28,255 bases of DNA, from the IMG/VR virus record IMGVR_UViG_3300035392_000113, positions 1 to 28,255 of that record, one strand, 5' to 3'. Below the pieces are notes generated by a model. It ran no database searches. It saw nothing but the letters and a program-made list of their open reading frames with translations, and was not told the DNA's origin. Below are positions 11,691 through 28,255 of this stretch, piece after piece (positions within the stretch are counted from its first letter, which is position 1; each line of letters opens with the position of its first letter). The position numbers were made by a program, and so were the translations under genes. This DNA is from a virus. Lineage: Duplodnaviria; Caudoviricetes.

Positions 11691-11722
11691 TTTTTAATTC
11701 CTCTAATTGATTTGATGATACC

Positions 11723-11751
11723 ATTATACCATACTTATCTCAATTTGTCAA
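11723..11751 (-). promoter_or_regulatory. Consensus sigma70-type promoter
   Basis: TTGACA (11751-11746), 17 bp, TATAAT (11728-11723). Confidence 0.9.
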
Positions 11752-11811
11752 TAAGGAATATCTAATTTATCCAAACTTTAAGATTATTCTAATTTATATC
11801 AGTATCATTAT

Positions 11812-12172: not shown

Positions 12173-12278
12173 ATGATAGTAAGCGAGTAACTTCGTTGAG
12201 GGTTAAGGCTAATAACCGCCTCGCAGTAATGACGAGTAACTTCGTTGAGGACAGGGCTAAGAACCACCTTACTATCAT
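12173..12278 (+). ncRNA. Putative structured small RNA with two repeated domains
   Basis: Closed by an 11-bp stem ATGATAGTAAG/CTTACTATCAT that starts at the predicted TSS; contains CGAGTAACTTCGTTGAGG twice (12184-12201, 12233-12250). Confidence 0.6.
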
Positions 12279-12281
12279 TAA

Positions 12282-13706: not shown

Positions 13707-15164
13707 TTAATTAAAGATGGGTTTAGGATGATATTTTGAAACAATCACTTGAATGATGGGTTTGGGTGTTGGTTCGTGGGCGGCGGCTAATGCTAATGCC
13801 CACGCCCAAAATTTATCGGCGTGATGTTTCTCAGTTTTATTGGTGTCAAACACTAAATTTTTACTTGCTGTAACAATGCGTTTAATGGAGTTGATTTGAT
13901 AAGCTAATTCACGGTCTGTCGGTAGTGGCGTTTTATGTTGAGAAATGAGCATTTTGGCGTTTGTTGCCCATAAAGCCTTACTTGCATTTGAGAACAATAC
14001 CCCTTCGGCCTTGTAAGGGAACGCCTTCCCTAATTTCTCCGCTAAATTCATGCCTAATCCGTTTCTATCAATAAAGAGTTTAACGATAGGTAACTTAGAA
14101 AGGGCATAACTTACAATGTCATATTGGTCATCAAAATCAACGTTGTCTAAACTAATCATTAACCGTAATGGATATGAGCTATCAACGGTTAAACCAATAA
14201 GAAAGAGTTCAGTCGTATTACGAGTTCGTCCAATGTCAAGACCTGCGGCAAAACTAATTTCTAAATGGTTTTTTAATAATTCGTCAATCGCCTCATACGC
14301 CGCAGTGGTATTTTTGTTAACGCAATCGGCTTTGAAACAAATGAGGTTATCGCTTGAAACGGTTCTAATCTCAGTAAATGAAATGAGACTTGTGGATTTA
14401 TCGGTGAACGAACATTCAAATTCTTGTTGAAATGATTCAATCGCCACATTTTGAAAAATTGACTTTAAGCGGTCATTACCAAATCTCTCAACTCTTTCAT
14501 CGGTGGGTAGAGTATGAGCAATTTTAATCGCCTCTTTCACATTGAGGCACATTCCAAACGTATGCCACCACGGGGTCTCTTTGCGTGAATACCCTGAGTA
14601 AGGTTGCAGTGTCTCAGTGAAGATTTCCCAAAACACCCCACTTGCCCCAAAAGGACTTGACCCAATGCGAACCCGTCCCCCCTTAGAAACAACAGGTAAT
14701 GACGCAGTGTAAATATCAAGGTCACTCTGAACGTGAGCAAATTCGTCAAGGTAAACGTTAAAGCGAGCTTTACCACGAGGGGCTTTAGACGGCAGACTTA
14801 TCAATCTAGCCCCATTGTCATACTCTAACCCTAATTGATTATTCACCACCAATTGCGGTAAACCCGATAACCGTAATCTCAAGTTATTCTCAATTTGACG
14901 AGCGTAACGGATTTTTTCAATCGCTTCGTTGTAATTGATAGACACAAAGAAACTTGACTGACCTTCTAAGAACGCATCGGCAACAGCTTCCGCCGATGCG
15001 GTGAAACTCCACGATACTTGACGGGATTTATTTTCAATTCTGAATTTTCCATCGTAACAGAAATGTTCAATTTGAAAATGTTCCCATCGTGCCGTCTCAA
15101 CTCCCGAAGCGGCGGGTAAATCTAAATTGTCTAACAAAAATTGCGCCCGTTTAGTCAATTTCAT
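13707..15164 (-). CDS. terL: Terminase large subunit (Mu gp28-like type)
   Basis: KSRQVSWS Walker A, VYLDEFAH Walker B, SSPFG coupling motif, FQQEFEC, GLDIGR and HADKFWA nuclease motifs. Confidence 0.95.
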   Translation of the reverse strand: MKLTKRAQFLLDNLDLPAASGVETARWEHFQIEHFCYDGKFRIENKSRQVSWSFTASAEAVADAFLEGQSSFFVSINYNEAIEKIRYARQIENNLRLRLSGLPQLVVNNQLGLEYDNGARLISLPSKAPRGKARFNVYLDEFAHVQSDLDIYTASLPVVSKGGRVRIGSSPFGASGVFWEIFTETLQPYSGYSRKETPWWHTFGMCLNVKEAIKIAHTLPTDERVERFGNDRLKSIFQNVAIESFQQEFECSFTDKSTSLISFTEIRTVSSDNLICFKADCVNKNTTAAYEAIDELLKNHLEISFAAGLDIGRTRNTTELFLIGLTVDSSYPLRLMISLDNVDFDDQYDIVSYALSKLPIVKLFIDRNGLGMNLAEKLGKAFPYKAEGVLFSNASKALWATNAKMLISQHKTPLPTDRELAYQINSIKRIVTASKNLVFDTNKTEKHHADKFWAWALALAAAHEPTPKPIIQVIVSKYHPKPIFN

Positions 15165-15573
15165 CAAATATCGTTAACGCCTCTTTCACTTGTAATGCCG
15201 CTTTATTTTGTCGTTCTGTCCATTCACTGAGACTCATTGTGACAACTTCAACGGGTTTGGTGTTCTCAAGTTCTAATTTTTCATTATAGCCCCGATTACG
15301 ACCAATGGTTTTGAGCATAAACGTAATCGCCCATGGTTGACCTTTCTGAACCGCAGCGATTAAATTTAACTCTGCTACGTCCAATACCTGTCCTCTCGCC
15401 GCATCGACTATTGCCTGTGCTTCAGGGTAATCTCTCAAGTAATGAAACATTGTGACGTGAGAGATTTTGAGATTTTTGGCCGCTAAATACACCCCACCAC
15501 GACAACGCTCTAATTCAGCGAGTATTACAGGTAATGGAATTTTCTTTTTTCGATTGCGTTTTTTCTTTTCCAT
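15151..15573 (-). CDS. terS: Terminase small subunit (HTH)
   Basis: HTH (GVYLAAKNLKISHVTMFHY), WAITFMLKTIGRNRGY motif, overlaps terL; start MEKKK at 15573 just after a promoter. Confidence 0.8.
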   Translation of the reverse strand: MEKKKRNRKKKIPLPVILAELERCRGGVYLAAKNLKISHVTMFHYLRDYPEAQAIVDAARGQVLDVAELNLIAAVQKGQPWAITFMLKTIGRNRGYNEKLELENTKPVEVVTMSLSEWTERQNKAALQVKEALTIFDEID

Positions 15574-15580
15574 ATAACAA

Positions 15581-15609
15581 ATTGTACTCATAACAATCAA
15601 CAGTGTCAA
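15581..15609 (-). promoter_or_regulatory. Sigma70-type promoter for terS/terL (leaderless)
   Basis: TTGACA (15609-15604), 17 bp, TACAAT (15586-15581), ATG 7 nt downstream. Confidence 0.8.
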
Positions 15610-15656
15610 TTTGTTATATGGATTAGATTATCTTATAATGACTGAACGGAGATACT

Positions 15657-16481
15657 ATGAATTACTATTGCCCTTATTGCTCAAATTACACGCCTATCAC
15701 CACCCCTATTCTTGCAGGTGGTTTATCAATGACTTGTATCCATTGCAAAAACGAAGTGATGATTTTGTTACATCCTGTCAACAGTGAGTTTTTCGGATTA
15801 ACAGACCGATTAAAGAAAATTTTGTTACAAGACGGAATTACTACGTTAACTCAATTATTGGAACAAAAAGATACTCTAACCTCAATTAAAGGGATTGGTG
15901 AAAAGAGTCTCACTGAGATTGATAATTTTTTTGAAAGTATGGGTATTGAAAAAACACCATCACTATTCGAAGGGTTTCTCAACAGTGGTGATGTTTTAGT
16001 TATCTGTGGTAATACAAGGATTGATACGGGGATTAAATTAATGAGGGCGGCGGTGTTAGCGGAATCATTTTTGGGTTTTCTCTGCACTAAGCAAAATGAA
16101 GTATTTTACATTACAGATGATAAAACCCCATTGTTGAATTATTCTTTTAATGAGAGTGAGATAACTCAAATGAATGAGCATTTGATATTACTTGACGGAA
16201 TATCCGATGACAGTATTAGTAAATTTTTAGCACTTTTAAGTCGTCCCATCAATCTCATTTGTCTTGACATCAACGGTTTTGTAGAGAATCAAAAACACCT
16301 ACTGTCTAATCTCAAGACAGAATGTCTCAAGTTCAGAACAGTAGGTGTTATTATCATCAATACTCCCTCTGCGTGGTTGATTGATAATGCAAACTCTGTT
16401 ATCTTTTGTGAAGATACAGAACTTAAATTATATAAAGATAATCAACTTACAGTATTTTCCAACGGTGAAACTGTGGAGTAA
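15657..16481 (+). CDS. Zn-ribbon + RNA polymerase alpha-CTD-like + degenerate RecA-like domain protein
   Basis: CPYC...CIHC; FGLTDRLKKILLQDGITTLTQLL...IKGIGEKSLTEI resembles alpha-CTD/HhH; LFEGFLNSGDVLVICG...VFYITDD...LICLD resembles an AAA_25/RecA fold without GK[ST]. Confidence 0.65.
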   Translation: MNYYCPYCSNYTPITTPILAGGLSMTCIHCKNEVMILLHPVNSEFFGLTDRLKKILLQDGITTLTQLLEQKDTLTSIKGIGEKSLTEIDNFFESMGIEKTPSLFEGFLNSGDVLVICGNTRIDTGIKLMRAAVLAESFLGFLCTKQNEVFYITDDKTPLLNYSFNESEITQMNEHLILLDGISDDSISKFLALLSRPINLICLDINGFVENQKHLLSNLKTECLKFRTVGVIIINTPSAWLIDNANSVIFCEDTELKLYKDNQLTVFSNGETVE

Positions 16482-16983
16482 AGAGGCATTTTTCCCATAA
16501 ATCTTTGCGCTCATAGTAAGTATTTAAGCCTTCAACCGTAAAATGCCCTGTTGCCCAAAACAGTTCGTCAATCGGTGTTATCCAATGCCCTGCTTGATAT
16601 TCTTCGTATCTCAGAATGTCATCTTTTTTGATGATACCACCATCTACGTCAACAGGGGCAACGTATTCAAAACCAATGACGGTTACAAGCGTATCAGGGG
16701 AACATTTATTAAACTCACAGAAAAAAGTTATAAACTGTTCAGGTGTCCATTTAGGGAATCCTTCCGCAATTACGTCTTGTTGAGTAATTAAATTCAACGG
16801 CTCATACCGATGTTCAGTCACTCTTATTTGACATAAATAACGAACCTTTTCCCCTTTCTTAAGCCCCTTGTCAATGGCGTTTAATATCTGCCCCACTTTC
16901 ACCTTATCCCACCCTAAACGGCGGGTTTTTGTTTTTGTACGGTATTCTATCTGAGGTGTAGTTTTGTGAAATGAAATGTTCAT
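16447..16983 (-). CDS. ASCH domain protein with C-terminal extension
   Basis: ISF...KTKTRR, EPLNLITQQDVIAEGF...FITFF...VTVIGFEY are ASCH/PUA-like motifs. Confidence 0.85.
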   Translation of the reverse strand: MNISFHKTTPQIEYRTKTKTRRLGWDKVKVGQILNAIDKGLKKGEKVRYLCQIRVTEHRYEPLNLITQQDVIAEGFPKWTPEQFITFFCEFNKCSPDTLVTVIGFEYVAPVDVDGGIIKKDDILRYEEYQAGHWITPIDELFWATGHFTVEGLNTYYERKDLWEKCLFTPQFHRWKIL

Positions 16984-17007
16984 TATGGTAGTAACCTGTA
17001 CAGTATG

Positions 17008-17101
17008 TGAGAGTGAGGGGAATCGAAACCCTTAAAGTTAGTTTTGAGTTAATTATTATGTCACTACGCTAACTGTGAGGAGTCCAATCCTCAACACTCT
17101 C
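17008..17101 (-). ncRNA. tRNA-like element with a 27-nt loop in place of the anticodon loop
   Basis: GAGAGTG/CACTCTC acceptor, GAGG-ATTGGACT-CCTC D arm, AGTTAG/CTAACT stem, AGGGT-TTCGATT-CCCCT T arm. Confidence 0.6.
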
Positions 17102-17170
17102 AGAATAACACGATTGTTTGATTTTGTCAATTATACCCTATAACCCCCCATTGTAGGGTCTCGTCTTACC

Positions 17171-17205
17171 ATAAAGGGTAGCTCAAAATTAGCTACCCTT
17201 TATTT
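17171..17205. terminator. Terminator hairpin downstream of the tmRNA-like gene
   Basis: ATAAAGGGTAGCT-caaaatt-AGCTACCCTTTAT inverted repeat. Confidence 0.75.
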
Positions 17206-17209
17206 CTAG

Positions 17210-17379
17210 TGGAGATGGCGGGTATCGAACCCGCGTACTACAGTCCTCACTAACTCATTCGCTGTAAACCATTAACCCTTCGCAAAACGGTTAATTTACC
17301 TTGAATAGTAGTCGCTATCGTGTTGCTGTGCGCCTTCGTGATAGCCTCTTAGACCGTAGGCGAAAACCATTTCATCCCC
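17210..17379 (-). ncRNA. Miniature tmRNA-like RNA (170 nt)
   Basis: 5' GGGGATG-AAATGGTTTTCGC-CTACGGTC ... GACTGTAG-TAC-GCGGG-TTCGATA-CCCGC-CATCTCC-A: acceptor stem with G3:U pair, stemless D loop, P2-like helix, T arm. Confidence 0.8.
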
Positions 17380-17393
17380 TAAATAATAAAACC

Positions 17394-17422
17394 ATTATAC
17401 TCTAATCATCATAGTTTGTCAA
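17394..17422 (-). promoter_or_regulatory. Consensus promoter for the tmRNA-like gene
   Basis: TTGACA (17422-17417), 17 bp, TATAAT (17399-17394). Confidence 0.9.
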
Positions 17423-17985
17423 ATAGGGTGAGTATATTTGAGCAATTCGAGTAAACGGGATTCAGGGTGTTTCCCTAACAGTTTCTTGAGTTTCTCATAA
17501 GTTTCGGTGGGGAAGGTTAAATTGAGTATCATTTCATCGGTAGGGACTTCGGGGGTGATGTTAGCGTCAGCTAACAATTCGTCAATCTCTTCGGGAAAAT
17601 AATAATCTGAAACATCTAAACCTTGAGTGATGTCGGCGTAAAGATTGGGGACATTTAGGGCATAATCAACTTTGGCGGTTTGATTGTCTGCGATGGTCAT
17701 TAAACGGCCTGTGGGGGTGTTAATGTCCACGTCAGTTCGTTCTATAATGACCATTTCATCGCCCTCTGTTTCAATGACCATTATCTCAGTAACGCCCATT
17801 TCTAAAGCGGCAGCGAAGGTTTTATTACCGCCCATAATGTTATCATTCATATCAAATAACAAAGGACGGGTAAATCCGTAATCGTTGATGGATTTTTTAA
17901 TGAGGGTTTTGCCTCGTTCAGTGCCATCGTTGTAATTGTTTGTGTCGGGTGTAACTTGAGTGACGGGTATGATTAAGTGAGACAT
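17419..17985 (-). CDS. ParB/Sulfiredoxin-like N-terminal domain protein (paralogue 2)
   Basis: NYNDGTERG..LIKKSI..YGF.RPLL.D....IMGGNKT...IADN pattern of phage ParB-like proteins. Confidence 0.75.
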   Translation of the reverse strand: MSHLIIPVTQVTPDTNNYNDGTERGKTLIKKSINDYGFTRPLLFDMNDNIMGGNKTFAAALEMGVTEIMVIETEGDEMVIIERTDVDINTPTGRLMTIADNQTAKVDYALNVPNLYADITQGLDVSDYYFPEEIDELLADANITPEVPTDEMILNLTFPTETYEKLKKLLGKHPESRLLELLKYTHPI

Positions 17986-18560
17986 AATTTTATAATGGCC
18001 TCTTCGGGAGTTGCAGCAAGTTTCGCTAACTCTGTTGTTACGAAAAAATATTCTTGTGAAGTAAACTCCAAATGAAATGATTTGTCTTTACTTGTCGCCC
18101 CCCCACCTTTTTTGGGTTCATCGGTTTCAGGTTGAATTTCACCAATAATTGCCACCAATTCCTCTTCGGTGAAATAAGGGGTTAAATCTAACCCCTTTTC
18201 GATATGATATAACAATTCCTCATTGGAAACGGCGTAATTGATTTCGTGAGTACGATTATCGGCTAACTTGAGTAACTGCCCCATTTCCGATTTGATACTC
18301 ACATCTTTACGGCGAACCGCTATTAACTGAGAACCATCACTTTTAACAAAAATAGCCTTCGTGAGATTAGAGGCAATCGCCGCACTGACCGTTTTATTAC
18401 CCCCCATCATCACTCTGTTACCATCAGCAAAACCACCACGCCCTAACCCCAATGTCGTAATGGATTGCGTTAATAAATGTTCCCCACGCATTGTCCCCTC
18501 ATTCAAATTGTGGTCATCTAAAATAACGGTACTTAAATCATCATAAACTATTTCGTCCAT
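17973..18560 (-). CDS. ParB/Sulfiredoxin-like N-terminal domain protein (paralogue 1)
   Basis: NLNEGTMRG..LLTQSI...GLGR...MMGGNKT...LADNRT; aligns with its neighbour. Confidence 0.75.
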   Translation of the reverse strand: MDEIVYDDLSTVILDDHNLNEGTMRGEHLLTQSITTLGLGRGGFADGNRVMMGGNKTVSAAIASNLTKAIFVKSDGSQLIAVRRKDVSIKSEMGQLLKLADNRTHEINYAVSNEELLYHIEKGLDLTPYFTEEELVAIIGEIQPETDEPKKGGGATSKDKSFHLEFTSQEYFFVTTELAKLAATPEEAIIKLCLT

Positions 18561-18868
18561 AATTGAGCATACCCCTCACTGAGTAACCACGCATTAATGT
18601 CAACTCCCTGTAACGTGGTTATATTTGCAATATAACGACCATAAACGTCTCGTTTATCCTTAACAGTGTCAATCATCACTGTCGTTCCCTCTATTTTCCC
18701 CTTCAATGCCTCATAACTCACTCTACCCGCCCCTGAACTCAACTCAGGGGCGTTAATCCGCCCTAACCGCAACCTCTGCTCTGTACTCACCCCAAACCCC
18801 AAATCTACCATCCCTATCACCGTATCACCATCTATCACCCGCTTTATTAACACCTTGTAATTATACAT
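18548..18868 (-). CDS. Thermonuclease (staphylococcal nuclease-like)
   Basis: RVIDGDTV, RLRLGRINAPE, DVYGRYIA, INAWLLSEGYA; GGAG RBS; no signal peptide. Confidence 0.92.
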   Translation of the reverse strand: MYNYKVLIKRVIDGDTVIGMVDLGFGVSTEQRLRLGRINAPELSSGAGRVSYEALKGKIEGTTVMIDTVKDKRDVYGRYIANITTLQGVDINAWLLSEGYAQLWTK

Positions 18869-19052
18869 CAATACTCCGTTTAACTTTAATTTTATGGGGC
18901 GATTATGATACCGTACTCCACGCCGATTCCAAAATCGGAATGAAACATTTCATCAAAAACCACCCACCCAAACTATTCGATTTTTGGGAAATATAATCAT
19001 CGTTATACCATAGTAATAACCTTAAAGTTTGATGAAAATAGGATTTACCCTA

Positions 19053-19081
19053 TTGACAAATACCAATAACTATGGTATAAT
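19053..19081 (+). promoter_or_regulatory. Consensus promoter heading the non-coding region
   Basis: TTGACA (19053-19058), 17 bp, TG-extended TATAAT (19076-19081); near-copy of the promoter at 832-878. Confidence 0.9.
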
Positions 19082-19196
19082 GGTATACATAAGAGAGTAA
19101 GTCAAACAGGAAGTGAGACGTATGAGCCACTACTGATTGAGGGTAGAGACCAAACTACCGTAAACAAAGAGCAAGTTGATAAACTACTCACTCATT

Positions 19197-19288
19197 GAAT
19201 AAACAAGAATAGACCTGAGCAACGTCACGAAAAGGCTTACCGAATGAGAATAAACAAGAATAGACCTGAGCAACGTCACGAAAAGGCT
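19197..19288 (+). repeat. 41-bp exact direct repeat, two copies
   Basis: GAATAAACAAGAATAGACCTGAGCAACGTCACGAAAAGGCT at 19197-19237 and 19248-19288. Confidence 0.95.
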
Positions 19289-19298
19289 CACTCAAGAA

Positions 19299-19433
19299 CT
19301 AAGGGGCGGCACTCTTAGAAAGACCTTAAGGGCAGTTTAGACTTTAAGGCACAAGACCTCAGAGGCGGCACTTTGAGGCAGAACAATACCCTTAGCGGCA
19401 TAAGGGTCAAAGACCAACGGGCGGCACTGTTGG
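19299..19433 (+). repeat. Array of five hairpins, four with a GCGGCA loop
   Basis: Hairpins at 19299-19318, 19324-19349, 19357-19378, 19388-19407 and 19414-19433. Confidence 0.9.
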
Positions 19434-19738
19434 CAATTAACAATAGCATATCGGTGCGATAGAGGGGATTAAGAGGTCGGTAACTCTCTCCCGCTAATGG
19501 AGCGATTTCATCAGGGCGCAGGATTTAATAGAGTTAGCGGGAGTAATAAAGTCCCGCTAACTCACTCAAGAATATGGTGGGTCATTTAATAAGCTGAGGT
19601 ACGCTTCGGTGAGGCAAGATGATTGACGGTACTTAGTTTCGATTTGTTGATGACTAAGGCAGAATCAATAATGGTGGTTCGAATCCATTCCCCGCTTGAC
19701 TAACATTTACACCTTAAACGGTTTACGATATAATTAAC

Positions 19739-20047
19739 GACTTAACAATCTAGTAACAATTAGTGATAGGATAATTGTGAAGTTGTTGTTAAGTCAGCTA
19801 ACATATTATTTTGATAACGGTTAAAAGAGAAATTATGTACGGGTGATGGGACTCTTCACAAACAGGGGGATATAGCGAACCCTTGAGATAACCGAAGGCA
19901 GAAACGGACTTCACTCATAGTATAAAAAGGCTAGAATAATTCTCCATTTGCTACGACCTCTATGTGCGAATAATGATGATTAGCATTTAATGACTTAATA
20001 ATCTAGTAAACGTAACTGATAGATTACGGCGAAGTTGTTGTTAAGTC
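19739..20047 (+). repeat. Duplicated ~57-nt hairpin module
   Basis: GACTTAAYAATCTAGTAA...TGATAG...GAAGTTGTTGTTAAGTC at 19739-19795 and 19992-20047. Confidence 0.9.
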
Positions 20048-20232
20048 ACTCACGAAACAACCTTTAACGAAAGTATAATTTTTCATCAGGTACATTACGG
20101 TAAGACCCATAACCGTACAGTTATAGTGGCGGGGGCATTAAGATGACATAATACCGTAATATAGTATACAAAGCTAGAATGATGAAAAATGGGCATCAAT
20201 ACCTCTTAAAATCAAAGGTCGTTAAGTGAAAC

Positions 20233-20261
20233 AACACCCTACTCAACTGAGTAGGGTGTTT
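20233..20261. terminator. Terminator hairpin between the ncRNA region and the convergent operon
   Basis: AACACCCTACTC-aact-GAGTAGGGTGTT-T. Confidence 0.7.
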
Positions 20262-20518
20262 AGTGTTATATCAGGATATTTCTGTTGTAATTTAACGAAT
20301 ATATCCCCAAACGTCACACAGACAATGTTTACGTTATGATTGCTGTAACCTTTACTTAAAGGGAATATGTTACGACATTCATTAAATGACCACATTTTTA
20401 CCGCCTCTTTTGTAGGCATTGTTACGATGTAGTTTTTAATCTCATTGTTATTTCCAATGACTGCCGTAATGGATACACTAAAAATGAGTTCGTGATATAA
20501 CTTTGCAATATCACGCAT
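20243..20518 (-). CDS. Hypothetical protein
   Basis: 91 aa, TAATG overlap with the dcd stop. Confidence 0.65.
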   Translation of the reverse strand: MRDIAKLYHELIFSVSITAVIGNNNEIKNYIVTMPTKEAVKMWSFNECRNIFPLSKGYSNHNVNIVCVTFGDIFVKLQQKYPDITLNTLLS

Positions 20519-21087
20519 TACAGCACTTTTGGTAAAGTAATACCCGTTTGTCCTTGATATTTCCCTTTACGGTCTAAGTAACTCACTTCACAGAGGGCAT
20601 CAGCTTGCAAGAACAACACTTGTGCAACGCCTTCATTGGCATAAATACGGGCGGGTAGGGGCGTAGTGTTGGAGATTTCAATGGTGATATAACCCTCCCA
20701 TTCAGGTTCTAAAACCGTCGGTGGTGAAACCAACCCACAACGGGCATACGTGGATTTGACGGTCATTAAGCCGATTAGATGACGAGGTATTTTAATGTAT
20801 TCAATCGTTCTTGATAAAACAAATGAGTTAGGCGGGGCAATGATAAATGTTCCCTTGTCATCTTTATGTAACACCCCATCAACAAAAGATAATTCATCAA
20901 AAGCTTTGGGGTCAATGACGATACCGTTAACATTGGTGAATATCTTAAATTCGTCCGCCGCACTCACGTCATACCCGTAACTTGAAAGACCAAACGAAAC
21001 TCTCCCTTTTCCCTGTTGCGTTTCAGTGAACGGAAATATCATCTCGTGTTCTAAAACTAATTGTTTAATTTGACTGTCAGCTAACAT
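20518..21087 (-). CDS. dcd: dCTP deaminase
   Basis: [56 protein letters not shown]; start MLADSQI at 21087. Confidence 0.95.
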
Positions 21088-21346
21088 AAACACCCCCTTT
21101 CTCATTGGCCTCAATAATGGCTTTACTCAAGCCCGATAACTCACTCTTAGTGCCACGTTTCCCCATTTCCAATAACTCCGTTAATATCCACGCATCATTA
21201 CGGTTTACCAAATCATACCCGTAAACTTTAGTGTGTGTCCTAATACTACGAACCATAATCTGTCGTTGTGATAATACTACCAAAAATAACATTATAGTCA
21301 ACCCAATCACAAAACTAAAACAATTTGTTACAATTATAACTGTCAT
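21077..21346 (-). CDS. Hypothetical membrane protein
   Basis: N-terminal hydrophobic segment; AGGAG RBS. Confidence 0.7.
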
Positions 21347-21437
21347 TTCAAGATACTCCTAAAAAGTCGTTTAATGAAATTATCAGGTTGATTATTCCAT
21401 AAACGCTTTAACAATTTAACTATTTCTTGAGTTTTTG

Positions 21438-21872
21438 TCATTTAATGATACTCCCTTTAAGTTCGTTATAAAGTTCCTCACTCATAAAATCTTGTTTCAA
21501 AAAATCAGGTTTTGTAATATCTACGATAATCCACGTCATCACTAAATCACAAAAGGTTATCATATAATACAGTCCATCAAATGTTTTAACAACATAAATC
21601 ATTAAGGTGGGAGAGATGTAATGACCGATAACGGCGATAATGAAGCTATCGGGTTTAAGTTCTCCGTTGTTGTGAAGTCGTTCAAACGGGAGTGTTGAGT
21701 TACTGAGTTCGAGCAGAGTGTAGATGTCGGCGATAATTCTTTGATAGGAGTGATAATAGGTGAGATACTGTTTACCGCCGATAAACAGACAGATAGCAGT
21801 AATGATTTTATCCTCAAACGAATTGCCGTTGAGGTCAGTTAGATGTTTTATGAGTTGTGGCGTTAAGGTCAT
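21438..21872 (-). CDS. Hypothetical protein
   Basis: 144 aa, AAGGA RBS. Confidence 0.75.
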   Translation of the reverse strand: MTLTPQLIKHLTDLNGNSFEDKIITAICLFIGGKQYLTYYHSYQRIIADIYTLLELSNSTLPFERLHNNGELKPDSFIIAVIGHYISPTLMIYVVKTFDGLYYMITFCDLVMTWIIVDITKPDFLKQDFMSEELYNELKGSIIK

Positions 21873-21888
21873 TTGAGTAAATCCTTAT

Positions 21889-21930
21889 AATAAAATAATC
21901 ACCCCATAATTATAGGGTGATTATTTTATT
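21889..21930 (-). terminator. Probable terminator after the replication genes
   Basis: AATAAAATAATCACCC-N10-GGGTGATTATTTTATT inverted repeat. Confidence 0.7.
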
Positions 21931-21937
21931 TAGTCAA

Positions 21938-22783
21938 TTACAGGGTTCGATAACTTTGCGTTATTTCGATAGGGATATGTCGCCATAGTTGTCCGAAAAT
22001 CCTATCGGCTACTGCGCCCCCCTGGTCAGCGATAGCCCCGTAATCCTCTGAGGGGTCATTACCAAACGCTGCCCAATAATCTGCCAATTGGAAGGGATTA
22101 CGATTTATCGTAATTATCATTGGTAATTTGCGACTATACCGATACTCAACTAAATCGTATAATTGTTCCATTACCCAACTTGAAGGTTTCCCTTTGTCGA
22201 GGTCGTCAATGAGTGAGATATGAGCGTGTTTTAGTTTATCCCACGAAGCATCGGCTAATACCCGTTTAGAGGCATTATTAAAGCCCTCTCGTGTCAACTT
22301 GAGTAACGCAGGCCAATTGGCGTATTTGGTTTTCCAAAAACGTTGTTCCATTAAATAAAAATTAGCCGCTACAGCCAAATGAGTTTTACCCGCCCCAAAT
22401 TTCCCTGAGAGTACCAAAAAATTCTTTTGTTTTGATTTAACTTCGTGACAATATTCCTGAACTTGAAATTTAACAAACGCGCCATCAACTAAATGTGAAC
22501 TGTTTTCGTTAAATGTGTCAAACGTACAATTTTTTAATTCGGTTGGAATTGAGGATTGTTTTATCAATTCCTCAACTTGACTTCGTTGTTCTCTTATCTT
22601 TTTTTGTTGCTTTTCTGTCTCACTCACTATGAGGGCGGCGGGACATTTACACTCAACTTTTCTGTAATATACTTTCGTTCCCATCTCTAAAATGCGAGCG
22701 TTTACAGTTTGATGACAAAGAGGACATTCCCACGTTGCGTCCTCTTTGCTCATCAAACCACCGATGATGTTATCGTATTTCAT
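21938..22783 (-). CDS. DnaC/IstB-like AAA+ helicase loader
   Basis: CPLC...CKC Zn site, TFDTF, Walker A GKFGAGKTHLA, Walker B LIDDL, LVEYRY...ITIN, ADRI. Confidence 0.92.
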   Translation of the reverse strand: MKYDNIIGGLMSKEDATWECPLCHQTVNARILEMGTKVYYRKVECKCPAALIVSETEKQQKKIREQRSQVEELIKQSSIPTELKNCTFDTFNENSSHLVDGAFVKFQVQEYCHEVKSKQKNFLVLSGKFGAGKTHLAVAANFYLMEQRFWKTKYANWPALLKLTREGFNNASKRVLADASWDKLKHAHISLIDDLDKGKPSSWVMEQLYDLVEYRYSRKLPMIITINRNPFQLADYWAAFGNDPSEDYGAIADQGGAVADRIFGQLWRHIPIEITQSYRTL

Positions 22784-23823
22784 TGTCTTAAAAACGCAGA
22801 ACGTCTTTGTTGAGCCTCCTGTTCCAATCTTTGGGCTAATGAACTTGTTTGGTTTGTTGTAACTTTCTTTTCTTGTTTTAATTCTAAAGTTAGATGTTTT
22901 TCGATAAGTTGTTTGGAATTTGGTAACTTGAATGATTTAGGATAGTGAGAGTAAAAAATAGCTCTAAACCCCCTAACCCACTCTAAAGGCTTTTTTGCCT
23001 CGATTAACTTCGAGGCAATATGAGTAATGTGTTTTTCGTACTCAGTAGTGATTTCTCCCCTGTACTCGTATAACTCAAGTAACGATTGACGATAAGCCAT
23101 ATTCGTATCATCAGCTAACTTTTGTTGATATTCTCGAAATATCAACAAATTACTCAAGTAATCCGATGGGCTTAAGGTACTTGTCCCATTATTTTTCCAA
23201 TGCCCATTAAACCATTGTGTCATTTGATGTAATTCGTCAAGCGTTACATTTAACTTTCGCAACCCTTTCGCCGCCTTCACTATCTCCCCCGCCTTTGAGG
23301 TAAATGTGCCTTCTCGCACCGTCCCTAAATCATCATCTAAGACGTTGCTTTTAACGAACCATAATTTACAGCCGATAGCAATCAGACGACTTATCTCAAG
23401 ATGTTCAGTACCCGCATCTGTAGTAACCTTACCTAATAATTTTTTATTGTAATAATAGTTTAACGCTACCCCAATGTTCTCTAAATGAAAGTCCCAATGA
23501 TTAGTATTACCCTCAATTGTTACACTTATCAATTGTGCCTCCACCAACACCTCTCTCACTAACCTTATTCCCCGCGAACTTAATCCCGTATAACGCTCTA
23601 TCTCTGTTAATGACGTTTTACCATTACCCCCATACGTGAGAAAAATAACTAAATTGAGTAATTTTTCTTCGGCAGGACTGAGATAGTACGATAACGGCTT
23701 GTGACTTTTCGGGTGTACTAAGGTGTATAGATGATTAGGGAACGGAGTGTAATCAAATAAACCCGCAGGCTCATTCATAAACCCCGCCCGTCCTAATGTT
23801 ATTACCTGTAATTCAACTTCCAT
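22780..23823 (-). CDS. Putative replication initiator / replisome organiser
   Basis: Winged-helix-like segment (SLTEIERYTGLSSRGIRLVREVLVEAQLI), coupled to the DnaC-like gene, AGGAGG RBS. Confidence 0.7.
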   Translation of the reverse strand: MEVELQVITLGRAGFMNEPAGLFDYTPFPNHLYTLVHPKSHKPLSYYLSPAEEKLLNLVIFLTYGGNGKTSLTEIERYTGLSSRGIRLVREVLVEAQLISVTIEGNTNHWDFHLENIGVALNYYYNKKLLGKVTTDAGTEHLEISRLIAIGCKLWFVKSNVLDDDLGTVREGTFTSKAGEIVKAAKGLRKLNVTLDELHQMTQWFNGHWKNNGTSTLSPSDYLSNLLIFREYQQKLADDTNMAYRQSLLELYEYRGEITTEYEKHITHIASKLIEAKKPLEWVRGFRAIFYSHYPKSFKLPNSKQLIEKHLTLELKQEKKVTTNQTSSLAQRLEQEAQQRRSAFLRQ

Positions 23824-23845
23824 AAAAACCTCCTTGATTAAATTT

Positions 23846-23873
23846 ATTATAGCTAATTATCTTAGTTTGTCAA
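23846..23873 (-). promoter_or_regulatory. Promoter of the replication operon
   Basis: TTGACA (23873-23868), 16 bp, TATAAT (23851-23846). Confidence 0.8.
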
Positions 23874-23968
23874 CTTGTTTAGGTATAGGTTTTGATTATA
23901 GCATCTCCCCCCGTTTTTTGAGAAAAACATAACCTTTTTGTTTTGTAACCTACTTAAAGTTATCTCTA

Positions 23969-23997
23969 TTGACAGAATAAGATAATTATGTTATAAT
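23969..23997 (+). promoter_or_regulatory. Consensus promoter (leaderless)
   Basis: TTGACA, 17 bp, TATAAT, ATG 6 nt downstream. Confidence 0.88.
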
Positions 23998-24003
23998 GGA
24001 GTT

Positions 24004-24972
24004 ATGAGAATAATGATATTGGTAAAAAATGAATTGATATATGCTGATGGGTGGATGTTAGCGGGTGACACTTTAACAGTGGCTTTTGCTGAACATTGGG
24101 ATAATGGGGGTTATAATCCTCATAAAGAGTATGAATTAAGGTTACAGGGGGTATCAAACGGTGACAAAATTTATGGGGACGGTAAGGGGATTGCAGCGAA
24201 GTTTGTGGCTGATGAACCTTACGTGTGGTCAGGGTATGAGCGTCCTCAATTCTTGAGTATTGGGAATCCGTATCTACCCGCTAAAGAGGTAGAGTTAGTT
24301 ATTCCCCCTGATGACAGTGAGGGTAAACGGCCTTTAGGGTACGTTGATTTTTACGATATTCTTACAACGTACCTAACCTCTCAAAAACCATATAGTTTCA
24401 TTTACGAGTTTCCTGAGAGTGAGCGAGAAAAAATATCAAATGTTATCTCGTGTTATAACCGATACACCCATTTAGCTTACCAACTGACTACAAACTTTCA
24501 ATACTCCCCTAACTTCTCGTGGCCTGATGCGTATATCGCCCCACTATACGGAGTGTTACATCGTTGTCATAAAAATACCCTTTATAACACTATCAGTTCA
24601 ATAAAAAACATTGTTAAATTTAATGATGTTGTCATTGGACGGGTAAAGGAAATACTCAAAGAAATTCACTTTGTTACAGGCGATTTAGATGTCGTTTGCA
24701 TTGATAAAAAGCGAGTTTTAGAATTTGGCGGATTATTAGCTCTCAGTAATTTTCTAAAAGGTTATGACATAGACGCTGAATTTCTTAACTCATTCGTACT
24801 CAGTGTTGGGAGTGTTAAAATCTATAACATACCGATACAGGTTAGAAACAAAGAGAAAGAACTTGTTGAAAGTCGCTCAAAATTTGAGTACGTCATCAAT
24901 TATAACACTCAAATTATTGTCTTAACTGATTTGAGCGATGTATTACAACAATTAAGACAGTGGGGGTATTGA
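24004..24972 (+). CDS. Hypothetical protein
   Basis: 322-aa ORF with own promoter; no family recognised. Confidence 0.85.
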   Translation: MRIMILVKNELIYADGWMLAGDTLTVAFAEHWDNGGYNPHKEYELRLQGVSNGDKIYGDGKGIAAKFVADEPYVWSGYERPQFLSIGNPYLPAKEVELVIPPDDSEGKRPLGYVDFYDILTTYLTSQKPYSFIYEFPESEREKISNVISCYNRYTHLAYQLTTNFQYSPNFSWPDAYIAPLYGVLHRCHKNTLYNTISSIKNIVKFNDVVIGRVKEILKEIHFVTGDLDVVCIDKKRVLEFGGLLALSNFLKGYDIDAEFLNSFVLSVGSVKIYNIPIQVRNKEKELVESRSKFEYVINYNTQIIVLTDLSDVLQQLRQWGY

Positions 24973-24997
24973 CAAACTGAGACTATAGGCTTATAAT
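24969..24997 (+). promoter_or_regulatory. Consensus promoter (leaderless)
   Basis: TTGACA, 17 bp, TATAAT, ATG 6 nt downstream, no SD. Confidence 0.88.
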
Positions 24998-25003
24998 GTA
25001 ATT

Positions 25004-25336
25004 ATGGAAAAAATAATCAAATTATATCAGGCGGTCATTGACCATAGGGATTACATTGTCCTTATGAGAAGGGATGGGCATTATCCTGTGAGAGTGAATA
25101 GCCTCACAGTTGAGGATGACGGTGTTTGGGTCGGTTATGGGGATACTGTAATAAATTTAACAGACGCTAAAGACATTGAAAATATGTTAAAGTCACTATT
25201 CGTATTTGAGTTAGATATGGATTTAGATGTTAGATTTATTAAGATTAAAGAAAAAATATCCTTAACTGAGTATATGAACAATATGGCACATAATCAGGGT
25301 ATTATCACAATGGAGCAATTTCTTAGTGAAACCTGA
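25004..25336 (+). CDS. Hypothetical protein
   Basis: 110-aa ORF behind a promoter. Confidence 0.8.
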   Translation: MEKIIKLYQAVIDHRDYIVLMRRDGHYPVRVNSLTVEDDGVWVGYGDTVINLTDAKDIENMLKSLFVFELDMDLDVRFIKIKEKISLTEYMNNMAHNQGIITMEQFLSET

Positions 25337-25772
25337 TATAAACATTTATTTTATCCCTTTTCCCGAATGGATAGTTCAAAGAGAATTTGGTGAATTATGG
25401 CAATCAATTCCTAAATGTCCAACCTACCTTAATATCAGAGAATGGTTTAGAACTTCCGTTCTTTTTGCAGGACGTAGACTTTATTTAGAGTTAAATGGGG
25501 TGAAGCGAGTGGATTGGTCGCTGAGTGCCAATGACTTCGGGGCATCGTTAGGCTGTCCAATGAACCATTGGCTACTCTACTCCACAATACCACTACTCTC
25601 AACTGAAATTAACTTCACTCAAGGTCTATACGGACGTGTCTCAAATAATAACGCTCATAAAATAACTAAAGTCTTATACAATAAAAACGCAATGATTGGT
25701 TATGAAATCAATGCCGTTAAAATTAACTGTGTTTACATAGATTTCAAAGGGGAATATGAGTTATTAAAATGA
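25326..25772 (+). CDS. Hypothetical protein
   Basis: 148 aa, GTG start with GGAG upstream, overlaps neighbours. Confidence 0.7.
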   Translation: MKPDINIYFIPFPEWIVQREFGELWQSIPKCPTYLNIREWFRTSVLFAGRRLYLELNGVKRVDWSLSANDFGASLGCPMNHWLLYSTIPLLSTEINFTQGLYGRVSNNNAHKITKVLYNKNAMIGYEINAVKINCVYIDFKGEYELLK

Positions 25773-26080
25773 GTGATATTAATATTTTGGTTAAGCAATT
25801 TAACGATTTCATTAAGAGTGAGAAACATATTGTATTATTTAGGGTATATGATACGTGGATTAAGGTGAGTAGTCCCATTCGTATTTTGAATAATTTGGAT
25901 GGTTATTACTCACTCTTAATTCGTGAAGCCGATGAACGGGTCAGCATCGGGCAAAGCGGAGTCTTGCTACCGTCAGTCCTCATATCACATACCCGCATTA
26001 TCCCCATCGCCGCCAAACCCCTAAAATGGTTAGGTCATAATCAATCTTACCCTAAAGATTACGACAATAAACAATCTTAA
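25769..26080 (+). CDS. Hypothetical protein
   Basis: 103 aa, ATGA overlap. Confidence 0.7.
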   Translation: MSDINILVKQFNDFIKSEKHIVLFRVYDTWIKVSSPIRILNNLDGYYSLLIREADERVSIGQSGVLLPSVLISHTRIIPIAAKPLKWLGHNQSYPKDYDNKQS

Positions 26081-26097
26081 AGTTCTCAATTTAATAG

Positions 26098-26126
26098 TTG
26101 ACAAATTGAGATTGTTGTGGTATAAT
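26098..26126 (+). promoter_or_regulatory. Consensus promoter
   Basis: TTGACA, 17 bp, TG-extended TATAAT. Confidence 0.9.
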
Positions 26127-26161
26127 GTAATGAGTAATCAATTAAACAAAGGATAATAAGG

Positions 26162-26608
26162 ATGTTAAAGAAACAGGGTGTTATAATTATAAGTCCTGAC
26201 GGACATAAATTTGAGATTGATGGGCAGAACGTGGTCGAACTTGAGAGTTCGTATAACGTTTACTCAGATGGTCGTAAGATTGGTTTTAGTAAGAAAAATT
26301 TGCGTGGGAAGGGGCAAAAGTGGGAAGGGTGGCGACTGTTATTAGGGGAGATTAAAGAACCACGCGTCTCAACTCAGTTAAACTTAGACCCTGTAATTAA
26401 AGTTGAACAAAGCCACTTATGGAATAATTACCGTGAATTAGCGGTAAAGTTTCAGCAAGTTTACAGAGATTACACTCGTTTAGAGAATGAGTATTTTTCA
26501 TCTAAAGATGGTGTAGTGAGTAATGAATTTCGACAGGTGGTTACTGAGTTTAATGAGTTGTTTGATTTATATAAGGAGGCACACAATGCGTTTTACAGCC
26601 GCAGCTAA
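26162..26608 (+). CDS. Hypothetical protein
   Basis: 148 aa, AAGGA RBS. Confidence 0.8.
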   Translation: MLKKQGVIIISPDGHKFEIDGQNVVELESSYNVYSDGRKIGFSKKNLRGKGQKWEGWRLLLGEIKEPRVSTQLNLDPVIKVEQSHLWNNYRELAVKFQQVYRDYTRLENEYFSSKDGVVSNEFRQVVTEFNELFDLYKEAHNAFYSRS

Positions 26609-26996
26609 TATCAGTCAAACCACAAACGGCCTCTTTGTCAGAACGACGCACGATGGGCGGTTACTCAGCGTTGCTACAGGGAAACCTGTCCCCCCTTGTG
26701 AAACAGAACCGTTATTAGCTCAATTGAGTGAGACTGAACGGGTAGCCTTCAATCAAGGGGCATCCATCATTGACGCTTATAAACGAGAGGGTTTTGTCCG
26801 CAAAATCGGGGCGTACATAATGCCCCACGCCATTACTGATGACGTTGCACGGTGTTGGCATTATGGGATGTACGGGAACGTAGTTCCTGTAAAACATATC
26901 GTCATCATCAATGGGAGTGAAGTGAAAGTCAATCGGCACGGACCAACTCCTAAAGTGACGAAATATCTACGTGACACTTATCGGGTTGGTTTATGA
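26586..26996 (+). CDS. Hypothetical protein
   Basis: AAGGAGG RBS supports start MRFTAA at 26586 rather than 26523. Confidence 0.8.
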   Translation: MRFTAAANISQTTNGLFVRTTHDGRLLSVATGKPVPPCETEPLLAQLSETERVAFNQGASIIDAYKREGFVRKIGAYIMPHAITDDVARCWHYGMYGNVVPVKHIVIINGSEVKVNRHGPTPKVTKYLRDTYRVGL

Positions 26997-27223
26997 GTGA
27001 ATTGTTAGCTGAATTAGAGTTAAGAGTAACGGAAATTCAGCGAGAAATTAGAGCTATACAGAAAGAATTAAATGTAATAAGTCTGTATAGCTCTAATAAC
27101 TTTCACGAAACCACCGCTATCTCTATGTCTCGAAAAATGGGACGTATTGCCTTTCTCGAAGGGCAAATCGCAGGGTTAGGTTACGCTTGTAGTCATATTG
27201 TTAAAGGGGAATTATGGAATTAA
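26993..27223 (+). CDS. Hypothetical coiled-coil protein
   Basis: 76 aa, ATGA overlap, heptad pattern. Confidence 0.7.
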   Translation: MSELLAELELRVTEIQREIRAIQKELNVISLYSSNNFHETTAISMSRKMGRIAFLEGQIAGLGYACSHIVKGELWN

Positions 27224-27518
27224 AAAGATTTCAGACACCGACAATAATTTGTGGGGATTAGGTGTTTTTGGAGATATACCATCGGTAACATTCTCAATCA
27301 ATGTTACGGGTGGTATATCTCGTTATTATCGGTACACTCCCCGTAGTTATCGGGCAATAGTGAAAGTTTTTGTTTATAAAGAGTTAGCGGTTAAAATTAA
27401 AATTCAAAGGACTGTACTTAGCGTTAATCGCTTAAAACCATTTAAGCGATTAGTAAGGGAGTTATACAATGATAATAAAGAACGGAAATATGTACGTAAA
27501 AGCCGTTTATTTTACTGA
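27198..27518 (+). CDS. Hypothetical protein, start uncertain
   Basis: Fills the gap between neighbours but has a TTG start; the best RBS-ATG (27214) is in another frame and stops after 15 codons. Confidence 0.4.
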   Translation: MLKGNYGIKKISDTDNNLWGLGVFGDIPSVTFSINVTGGISRYYRYTPRSYRAIVKVFVYKELAVKIKIQRTVLSVNRLKPFKRLVRELYNDNKERKYVRKSRLFY

Positions 27519-27867
27519 AATAAATGATAAACCCACTCATACAATTGTAATGACCCCTAACATCAATGAGGCGGTAGATTTTAGCAGAATACCCGCCCAA
27601 TCAGTGATTATAGGGAATGACTTATCAAGTGAGGCGATACGACAATTACCCCGACCTAATACTCAGTACGTGGTATTAGAGCATAAATATTGTTTGAATA
27701 TTTGGAATTGTCAGGCAGATTTATGTCGGATTATTGATGACCCATTTTCACTTGAGACAATAAATGTTTCTGACGAAATAATTGACCAATTGTTAATGGA
27801 AAATAATATCGCCATCAACATATCAGGAATATATCCGATACTTTATGATTCTAATAACGTTAGCTGA
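27469..27867 (+). CDS. Hypothetical protein
   Basis: 132 aa, GGGGAG RBS. Confidence 0.75.
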   Translation: MIIKNGNMYVKAVYFTEINDKPTHTIVMTPNINEAVDFSRIPAQSVIIGNDLSSEAIRQLPRPNTQYVVLEHKYCLNIWNCQADLCRIIDDPFSLETINVSDEIIDQLLMENNIAINISGIYPILYDSNNVS

Positions 27868-28132
27868 TTTAGCAGAGTTGAGTAATGCCCCGTTATCACA
27901 CGCGTTACTTGAAAAAATCAAAACACTTACTCAAGTAACGGACGCGATTCAATTCGAGGTCGTTTCCGTCATTCAAGTATTTTATGGTCTTAATTTTACC
28001 CATCGGGTAATCACCGTCAATGAGGAAAAAAGGGTTTATTGTTCCAATGACATCGTTCATACGGTGGACAACATATTACTAGAAATGGTAGGTGTGCAAG
28101 ATGAACCTTGTCCCGATTGTTTCCCCCAATAA
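27845..28132 (+). CDS. Hypothetical protein
   Basis: 95 aa, co-oriented overlap, C-terminal CPDC. Confidence 0.6.
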   Translation: MILITLADLAELSNAPLSHALLEKIKTLTQVTDAIQFEVVSVIQVFYGLNFTHRVITVNEEKRVYCSNDIVHTVDNILLEMVGVQDEPCPDCFPQ

Positions 28133-28255
28133 TCCGTTTTTAATTTCCATCAAAATGAGTAGTCAATTATGGTCTGCTCATAATATGACTACTCTTAAAA
28201 ATTGGCTCACTCAACTTAAAGGCAATGATTGTTTTGAGTTCGTCATTGACGATAC

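Follow-up and report, generated by a model that had tools for sequence, protein, structure and literature searches.

A modular locus of probable structured non-coding RNAs in a tailed phage, compared with described RNA systems

Described RNA systems and the phage locus

Among the structured RNAs that invite comparison with the locus described here, GOLLD and ROOL form RNA-only cages and lie near phage transfer RNA (tRNA) islands (10.1101/2024.12.08.627333), a phage pseudo-ToxI RNA suppresses ToxN (PMC5086642), phage tRNAs defeat retron-Eco7 and PrrC (PMC11555353), and coremin motifs stall Xrn1 (PMC10321173, PMC10520033). A further point of contact is provided by Cas12a3, which holds tRNA by its T-arm and acceptor stem (PMC12851939). 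The locus itself occupies positions 19053 to 20261 of IMGVR_UViG_3300035392_000113, a tailed-phage fragment of 28,255 bases which, at its full length, is called the window below; it encodes a terminase, a prohead protease-capsid, a portal-like protein, a tail tube, a dCTP deaminase and a DnaC-like ATPase, and the metagenome runs that contain the region are microbial-mat samples. As judged from sequence comparison, the locus very probably encodes structured non-coding RNA, and the preferred reading, to which a probability of roughly 0.45 is given, is a cassette of exchangeable decoy RNAs, probably guarded at the 5′ end and transcribed from two promoters. To our knowledge, large phage non-coding RNAs mostly lack an assigned function, and the RNA-based counter-defences known to us are single tricks, such as pseudo-ToxI or spare tRNAs. 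The locus is probably of a known kind, namely a structured phage non-coding RNA and probably a decoy; what is new would be its uncatalogued folds and its modular build.

A terminase search of viral_contigs gave 78 related loci, among them L002, which represents the same phage at 99.9%, and L001, a sister phage (85% by terminase) that carries the entire RNA locus at the equivalent genome position. A first, sequence-only reading of the window had described the interval as one transcription unit free of open reading frames (ORFs) of 60 amino acids (aa) or more, and indeed none of this length lies between 18872 and 20242, the sole ORF-free stretch above 500 nucleotides (nt) in the window. None of the 18 small ORFs present (15–44 aa) combines a frame kept in L001 with an evident ribosome-binding site, as judged by eye, and small-peptide coding was rejected on this comparison. 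The perfect promoter reported at the start of the interval is confirmed as TTGACA-17-TATAAT at 19053–19081 on the plus strand (P1), a sigma-70-type consensus with an extended −10 element, a predicted start near 19088 and both hexamers conserved in L001; it is one of six perfect sites within 14000–28255 and thus represents the ordinary promoter type of the phage. A second promoter, P2 (19706–19734, plus strand; TTTACA-17-TATAAT, 11 of 12 consensus bases), had been missed; its 29 bases are all identical in L001, and its predicted start is the foot of the first loop-E hairpin. The picture of a single transcription unit is therefore too simple: P1 is present, but P2 likely yields a nested RNA of about 500 nt. 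A promoter-region sequence recurs at several divergent promoter sites of the window (19003–19017, 11718–11788 and 831–890), which suggests one shared control element. The terminator hairpin, 13 base pairs (bp) long, is found at 20233–20260, where it separates the RNA cluster from convergent genes, but its plus-strand U-tract is weak and it was flagged as a terminator on the minus strand only; L001 has a different, clean two-way terminator at the equivalent place. In keeping with the initial failure to assign the interval to a named family, Rfam returned no match in the region at E values up to 1 or up to 10, and none in L001.

In the proposed mechanism, host RNA polymerase would produce an RNA of about 1.15 kilobases (kb) from P1 and the nested RNA of about 500 nt from P2, both finishing at the same end hairpin. 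An exonuclease of the RNase J type would be halted at coremin-like pseudoknots near the 5′ end, leaving the modules beyond them to accumulate. This payload would comprise several hairpins that share a fixed loop, free T-arms, one tRNA shape that lacks an anticodon and a 245-nt fold present twice; their many small RNA surfaces may titrate host proteins that recognise RNA shapes, tRNA-like or otherwise, the most plausible being defence nucleases directed at RNA or regulators. The set of modules would grow and shrink with changes in the host's repertoire of these proteins. Sponge RNAs of the CsrB/RsmY kind are built from invariant loops on interchangeable stems in several copies, and by analogy fixed loops on free stems, free T-arms and non-decoding tRNA shapes would be the expected look of a decoy. 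Whole modules are gained and lost between the window phage and L001, which adds, in the same transcript, four free T-arm hairpins (three GGUU(C/A)AAGUCC, one GGUGCAAGUCC) and further pseudoknot-like units. More doubtful is the wider claim of a new phage counter-defence locus, that is, a plug-in RNA cassette in which exonuclease-blocking pseudoknots would stabilise interchangeable decoys (free tRNA arms, anticodon-less tRNA shapes, fixed-loop hairpins and bulged-G hairpins), and in which the pseudoknot would represent a bacterial-virus class of exonuclease-resistant RNA (xrRNA) used across many phages; such a cassette would be the RNA counterpart of an anti-defence protein island. With several uncatalogued folds in one expression unit, and with parts that differ between two close phages, each module can be tested alone against RNases and defence systems.

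Pairing conserved between two phages

Selection on RNA structure, as put forward in the sequence-only reading, is supported by pairing that is kept despite sequence change, and RNA-like structure under selection may, on comparative grounds, be regarded as well supported. Unit B of the P2 part is 72% identical to L001, yet all 30 predicted pairs are kept, with 8 two-sided and 4 one-sided changes, whereas slid controls pair only 38–53%; the main helices are the same when either phage is folded by itself. In the eight GCGGCA hairpins of the two phages, 56 of 56 cells are paired and all seven columns carry two-sided changes, the loop being invariant. Pairs predicted from the window alone include 13 two-sided changes that still pair in L001, against a null mean of 2.8 and a maximum of 10 in 5000. 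Five modules are 88–95% identical between the phages, compared with 48–64% at the fourfold-degenerate sites of five flanking genes.

Several observations weigh against this interpretation and against the decoy cassette built on it. Upstream of P1, 127 of 138 bases agree as well (92%), so that recent exchange may inflate the identity of the 5′ end, where identity alone is weak and covariation is the better evidence. The test with window-only predictions also contained 50 broken pairs among 354, and the minus strand behaved similarly; a count of G-U against A-C that is neutral to strand came out flat, at 28 to 29, and hairpin density, by a crude measure, does not exceed that of the rest of the window. 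Since the minus strand is alike and the G-U count flat, what assigns the structures to the plus strand is the promoters together with the G-U pairs of hand-picked helices. Structures obtained with RNAalifold from two sequences are partly circular. The modules other than the pseudoknot are known from two phage lineages only, L001 being the one informative relative that the suggested collection of homologues provided, and two lineages are too few for an R-scape-type test. As the genome is a fragment (the completeness of L001 is 24% according to CheckV), a dedicated phage partner protein could be encoded beyond the known sequence. Finally, the YG(NN)AD loop consensus of coremin is not matched by the pseudoknot, which also lacks a second hairpin immediately next to it, and the GGCA loops are only loosely D-loop-like, the window having a single T-loop for its four such hairpins.

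The flat strand-neutral count bears directly on one alternative, according to which the structures would work at the level of single-stranded DNA, as signals for origin, recombination or packaging, rather than as RNA. Covariation cannot separate the two, and the recurrent word TCACTCA resembles a DNA-level word. The two conserved promoters, however, point inward, a terminator closes the locus, and where only one side of a pair has changed in the best helices, the result is G-U on the plus strand. Moreover, T-loops, the AGUA/GAA motif and A-rich-looped H-type pseudoknots belong to RNA, and a role as single-stranded DNA is considered the least probable of the alternatives discussed here.

Modules and their nearest described relatives

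In the P1 part of the cluster (about 19088–19700), 5′ hairpins and pseudoknot repeats are followed by the hairpin array, the junction module, a hairpin of 12 bp and, last, a domain resembling tRNA; these modules, as well as the units of the P2 part, are all assigned to the plus strand. The two repeats noticed at the outset are borne out as 41–44-nt copies, 98% alike, at 19197–19239 and 19248–19290, each consisting of an A-rich leader and a predicted H-type pseudoknot (cores 19212–19239 and 19263–19290). A third copy, at 19169–19194, is a broken remnant, which is complete in L001, where AAC/GUU replaces GAC/GUC. Over six aligned copies, the 3-bp stem 1 and the 5-bp stem 2 have 44 of 48 cells paired (90% in stem 2), and four pairs show a two-sided change, a value as high as this being reached in 1 of 500 shuffles. 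On its predicted structure, the 41-nt repeat is a copy of a general phage intergenic pseudoknot and not private to the RNA cluster. A search with the core pattern found 14 unrelated viral loci, and a wider pattern found 120 loci in half of viral_contigs (about 240 stored stretches by the tool's estimate), where chance would give about one match, as estimated from 19.5 fixed bases, 7 spacings and an assumed total of about 50 gigabases.

A sample of 134 such loci, with 135 matches and 40-nt flanks, was grouped into 76 lineages with GC contents of 30–64%, L001 included. The fixed positions of the pattern cannot show covariation in this sample; the fourth pair, which adjoins the fixed pattern on its outer side, is Watson-Crick in 52 of the 76 lineages (shuffle mean 19, maximum 33), and the next pair in 18. 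In 45 lineages a stop codon lies no more than 30 nt ahead of the pseudoknot, against 14 on the opposite strand; in 29 the pseudoknot precedes a ribosome-binding site and start, against 4 on the opposite strand, and in 5 a tRNA-like D arm. Further copies of the pseudoknot, which carry no annotation, lie between genes of N4-like roseophages. Two nearby GCGGCA hairpins were absent from every other lineage of this set. Rfam gave no match on other copies of the pseudoknot, and GP20-b was rejected with 13.1 bits on another copy against a cut-off of 36.2; in L300 and L301, the motif is separated from a scaffold-type gene by another small pseudoknot-like element with weak similarity to the 3′ half of Rfam GP20-b. 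A full-text literature search with four 14-nt forms of the core returned zero papers, its coverage excluding the 8,495 candidate-RNA alignments of PMC10690425 and the supplement of PMC5737381, which may hold the pseudoknot or a hairpin module. As an element of 26–30 nt that is common in unrelated phages, the pseudoknot offers a direct test of whether DNA phages shape their transcripts with exonuclease-resistant RNAs.

Coremin motifs, the nearest described counterpart, have a 4-bp hairpin whose loop measures 4–8 nt, then a spacer of roughly ten bases and another hairpin; their Watson-Crick form pairs GGAG with CUCA (PMC10321173, PMC10520033). The repeats resemble xrRNA-C and xrRNA-WCC in a hairpin of 3–4 bp, a loop starting with C, an A-run as spacer and a position at a gene/RNA boundary, and their loop-spacer pairing includes GAG/CUC, as in the SPlV5 motif. 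The loop-spacer pairing, the one L1 base and the A-rich spacer of xrRNA-WCC are all present, with C followed by UGAGC, which pairs with GCUCA. On the other hand, the stem reads GAC/GUC and not GUC/GAC, the loop has 8–9 nt, the second stem has 5 bp, and L1 is C, where published WCC cases need G (PMC10321173). The first hairpin has 3 bp in the window copies instead of the 4 bp of coremin, the fourth pair being the one that covaries across lineages. The loop, CUGAGCAA(C), does not match the xrRNA-C consensus YGAD/YGNNAD, and a second hairpin directly after the spacer is absent: it starts 8 nt past stem 2 for copy 2 (19290 to 19299), and none follows copy 1. The repeats are found in DNA phages, whereas the available portions of PMC10321173 and PMC10520033 name no phage or bacterium. 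With two defining features missing, the pseudoknot is not classed as coremin, though on paper it would be mechanically similar.

Type III antitoxins and pseudo-ToxI share with the repeats a tandem arrangement of about 40 nt, predicted H-type pseudoknots, an A-rich loop, a promoter and a variable copy number (PMC5086642, PMC12283969), but the same pseudoknot is here mostly single and lies between unrelated phage genes. An antitoxin of the toxI, cptI or tenpI type was rejected, because no plus-strand ORF or toxin gene follows, only convergent genes, and no ToxI-type match was obtained from Rfam. The STAXI tandem pseudoknots (RF01728) were likewise rejected, with 0 of 5 records over the cut-off and no candidate in L001 or L002. 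A general phage element of which one copy is broken in the window would also suit an explanation in which the locus is a loose collection point of independent, partly decayed RNA pieces, such as tRNA fragments and gene-boundary pseudoknots, with no shared function; the odd tRNAs of L001 would fit as well, and the identity may stem from recent exchange. Decay would not, however, yield two-sided changes without broken pairs, nor would it put unchanged loops on new stems or leave the inner promoter fully conserved, and such a collection is judged quite unlikely.

The 5′ module (19102–19159), an interrupted hairpin followed by a GGUAG/CUACC hairpin, has the same fold in both phages; 81 of 88 bases are identical to L001, with zero compensatory changes. 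In the hairpin array (19299–19433), the five hairpins noted earlier are present, but the common loop, GCGGCA, occurs in four of them only, on freely varying stems of 7–8 bp, and the fifth (19324–19349) has a 10-nt loop. The stretch 19295–19440 has a folding z score of −4.19, with none of 200 shuffles equally stable. The array resembles CsrB, RsmY and RsmZ in its several short hairpins, its one fixed loop on variable stems and its A-rich linkers, and differs in being phage-encoded and fused with unrelated modules. CsrB-type RNAs carry GGA within their hairpin loops; all eight loops of the two phages read GCGGCA, without GGA, and a sponge of the CsrB/RsmY type was rejected. The multi-helix module that follows (19445–19530) is identical to L001 at 86 of 91 bases and has alternative predicted folds; its GUCGGUAA loop at 19476–19483 presumably resembles a tRNA D-loop. 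It is succeeded by a 12-bp hairpin and ACUCA (19531–19563), in place of which L001 has another hairpin, of 12–13 bp, with the same tail. The switchable helix seen in the sequence-only reading can be formed in the window (CCCGCT at 19490, 19553 and 19691; AGCGGG at 19536), but the L001 stem differs and cannot switch, and a conserved conformational switch was rejected as lost in L001.

The tRNA-like domain (19576–19697) combines a 6-bp acceptor-like stem, instead of one of 7 bp, with a variable arm at the D position, an 11-bp stem whose 4-nt loop stands in for the anticodon loop, and a canonical T-arm at 19673–19689, which fits GGUUCRANUCC and is identical in L001. The fold claimed for it thus holds for the T-arm and the acceptor-like stem, but there is no 7-nt anticodon loop and no CCA, and its stability (z −0.2) is not above that of shuffles. 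All 26 predicted pairs are kept in L001, with one compensatory and one one-sided change. ARAGORN and Rfam made no tRNA call at 19576–19697, and tRNA identity was rejected on stem, anticodon loop and model calls. Hammerhead, hairpin ribozyme, Y RNA, T-box, ANTAR-target, preQ1 and signal recognition particle RNA were rejected on their characteristic features, the core bases not being conserved and Rfam giving no match. The phage tRNAs directed against tRNA-cleaving defences are similar in their strong promoter and in tRNA-like shapes made in excess, but they are working replacements for the cleaved ones (PMC11555353); the tRNA shapes of the cluster, without anticodon loop and CCA, could by analogy only distract.

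The P2 part (19739–20229) consists of two paralogous units of about 245 nt with conserved GUAC, AUAGYAUA, GCUAGAA and ACCUCU. Unit A (19739–19985) begins with an AGUAA/YGAA (loop-E-type) hairpin with a GAUAG apex (19739–19795), followed by a multi-junction domain with ACCUCU at 19956; unit B (19991–20229) has its loop-E-type hairpin at 19991–20048 and ACCUCU at 20201 in the corresponding domain. The two loop-E-type modules predicted earlier are thereby recovered, as AGUA/GAA hairpins at 19739 and 19991 with z scores of −3.4 and −2.7. The next two hits of a unit-B model are unit A of both phages, at rough E values of 0.036 (L001) and 0.19 (window); the paralogous multi-junction domains are 58% alike, and MAFFT gave no alignment of units A and B. 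In the four loop-E hairpins of the two phages, AUCUAGUAA, GAAGUUGUUGUUAAGUC and the GAUAG apex are kept, and 4 of 6 inner-stem pairs change two-sidedly. In the sarcin-ricin loop, the AGUA/GAA motif is placed one pair below a GNRA tetraloop; here the motif occurs in all four copies, but is then followed by a 5–7-bp stem and an 8–9-nt GAUAG loop, and a sarcin-ricin mimic was rejected.

The shared ACCUCU raises an alternative in which the P2 units would be trans-acting antisense RNAs that present this sequence to the Shine-Dalgarno element (AGAGGU/GGAGGU) of phage or host mRNAs and control their translation, the P1 modules being separate small RNAs. ACCUCU is kept in all four units though the paralogous domains have diverged, it is mostly unpaired in three of four single-sequence folds, and GAGGU precedes the start in several phage genes. 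The six-base seed is short, however, and in unit B of the window it is predicted to be partly paired. Antisense control would also leave the T-arms, the loop-E hairpins and the GCGGCA array unexplained, and is regarded as unlikely.

Taken as a whole, the locus resembles GOLLD and ROOL in being phage-encoded, several hundred nt long and non-coding, and in having multi-way junctions and tRNA genes in the same genome (10.1101/2024.12.08.627333; PMC5737381). It differs in its separable modules that come and go, its two promoters and its occurrence in two lineages only, and it does not lie beside a tRNA cluster, tRNA-Leu being 6.7 kb away. Membership was rejected, as the covariance models of these families had no hit in the region (E up to 10) or in L001. 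A scaffold or self-assembling RNA of this kind, with T-loops, GG loops and bulged-G motifs locking copies into a particle, would agree with the phage origin, the size, the multi-way junctions, the tandem paralogous units and the presence of tRNA and transfer-messenger RNA (tmRNA)-like genes in the genome. It is at odds with the lack of an Rfam match, with modules that are short-range and separated by A-rich linkers, and with the absence of conserved long-range pairing between modules other than a 5-bp GUCAA/UUGAC candidate; the supported helices span at most about 190 nt in the two sequences. Gain and loss of whole modules between close relatives is likewise a poor fit to a single ornate fold, and the scaffold is given the same low probability as antisense control.

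UG27 arrays are phage arrays of structure-conserved, sequence-diverse units that are gained and lost (10.64898/2026.09.22.753630), and in this respect the locus is similar; it differs in having several unit types and a unit of 245 nt, compared with about 135–167 nt in UG27. A UG27 array was rejected, since no domain of the UG27 reverse transcriptase or its partner ORF was present among the scanned proteins of what is a genome fragment. In more general terms, a phage enzyme whose gene lies beyond the known fragment might use the units as templates or cofactors, in the way that the UG27 reverse transcriptase uses its RNA arrays. The variable, structure-conserved arrays would suit such a role, and most of the genome does lie outside the known fragment. 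No reverse-transcriptase or RNA-ligase domain, however, was found among the scanned proteins of the window and L001, both genome fragments, and UG27 arrays adjoin their genes and repeat one unit type, whereas the neighbours of the RNA cluster are a nuclease, two ParB-like proteins and the dCTP deaminase. An enzyme template is accordingly a very unlikely explanation.

Distribution, gene setting and further RNAs

In all searches made, relatives of the whole locus were limited to the window phage and L001. A search with a core 21-mer gave two loci, and one with a ParB-like protein gave two in viral_contigs and two in metagenome_contigs (L265 and L266), the latter being 99.8–100% identical over the locus to the two phages already known. 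A homologous-protein search gave three loci, a search of GenBank phages gave no match, and two loop-E patterns gave 67 and 115 loci, all of which, beyond the known phages, lacked matching stems. The locus was not found in a DNA search of 301 genomes from one candidate host phylum; models of unit B and of the loop-E hairpin revealed no further locus in 150 genomes each, and the unit-B model no further relative among 93 other loci. The loop-E model matched only L363, which is L001, among 100 loci and likewise among 80 pseudoknot loci. A 322-aa early protein retrieved no relative that would extend the genome, and four metagenome DNA runs contained zero informative variants within the region. The seven sequencing runs listed for the region include no RNA run, which speaks neither for nor against its expression. 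Prophage terminases 53–59% identical to that of the phage sit in genomes labelled Pyrinomonadaceae, Caldilineaceae, Ardenticatenaceae and others. Near the RNA cluster, both phages encode a protein with a weak ASCH-domain match (window 16447–16983, minus strand; E 0.008, under the cut-off) and a staphylococcal-nuclease homologue (18548–18871, minus strand).

Both phages carry further tRNA shapes without a normal anticodon loop, as well as a tmRNA-like RNA. The latter, of 173 nt and thus half the usual length, lies at 17207–17379 of the window (minus strand) and at 5705–5880 of L001 (plus strand), with an Rfam score of 55.3 bits (cut-off 47). It has a perfect promoter ahead of it in the window, its middle part keeps long stems, and its candidate tags differ (AQQHDSDYYSR and AQQSVAT, one per phage). 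A tRNA-shaped RNA at about 17009–17100 of the window (minus strand; promoter-like site at 17130–17102) and at 6584–6668 of L001 (plus strand) has a 6-bp D stem and a normal T-arm, but its anticodon loop is replaced by a large A/U-rich loop whose length varies. In the tRNA cluster of L001, which the window phage does not have apart from tRNA-Leu, two tRNA-like genes (14055–14130 and 13977–14051, minus strand) bear a 4-nt GAAA or GCAA loop instead of the anticodon loop. Between a promoter and tRNA-Leu, a tandem RNA-like motif (window 12175–12281, plus strand; L001 about 14316–14210, minus strand) contains CGAGUAACUUCG(U/C)UGAGG...GGCUAA..AACC twice, and a terminal stem closes it; it is nearly identical in both phages and has no match in Rfam. 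We presume a faint likeness of this motif to the twister core.

The recurrence of TCACTCA at module boundaries, as listed in the sequence-only reading, is right for all five positions, but the word is weak as a boundary signal, being spread over the genome and overlapping helix strands. At 19188 and 19288 it overlaps stem 2 of the pseudoknot, at 19562 and 19911 it belongs to 3′ strands, and at 20046 to a 5′ strand that pairs with AGTGA at 20225. The window holds 31 copies on both strands. In coding DNA, 12 were seen against 2.0 expected, a 6-fold enrichment, in the region 5 against 0.57 (P = 3e-4), and in L001 6 against 1.3; one of the five copies in the region is altered in L001. A private processing signal was rejected on account of the genome-wide enrichment and the overlap with helices, and ACUCA as a 3′ tail after helices is a guess. 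Among the pseudoknot lineages, 30 of 76 continue with CAC after GGCT. No words are more over-represented in the coding DNA of the window and of L001 than TGAG/CTCA and ACTCA, and the density of ACTCA is 5–6 per kb, compared with a median of about 1.3 in other terminase-related loci. GATC, CCGG, CATG, CCAG/CTGG and TTTAAA are absent or nearly so from coding DNA, and CGCG is also absent or rare; these missing words suggest heavy restriction pressure, and the over-represented TGAG/CTCA and ACTCA are possibly a by-product of the escape from restriction sites.

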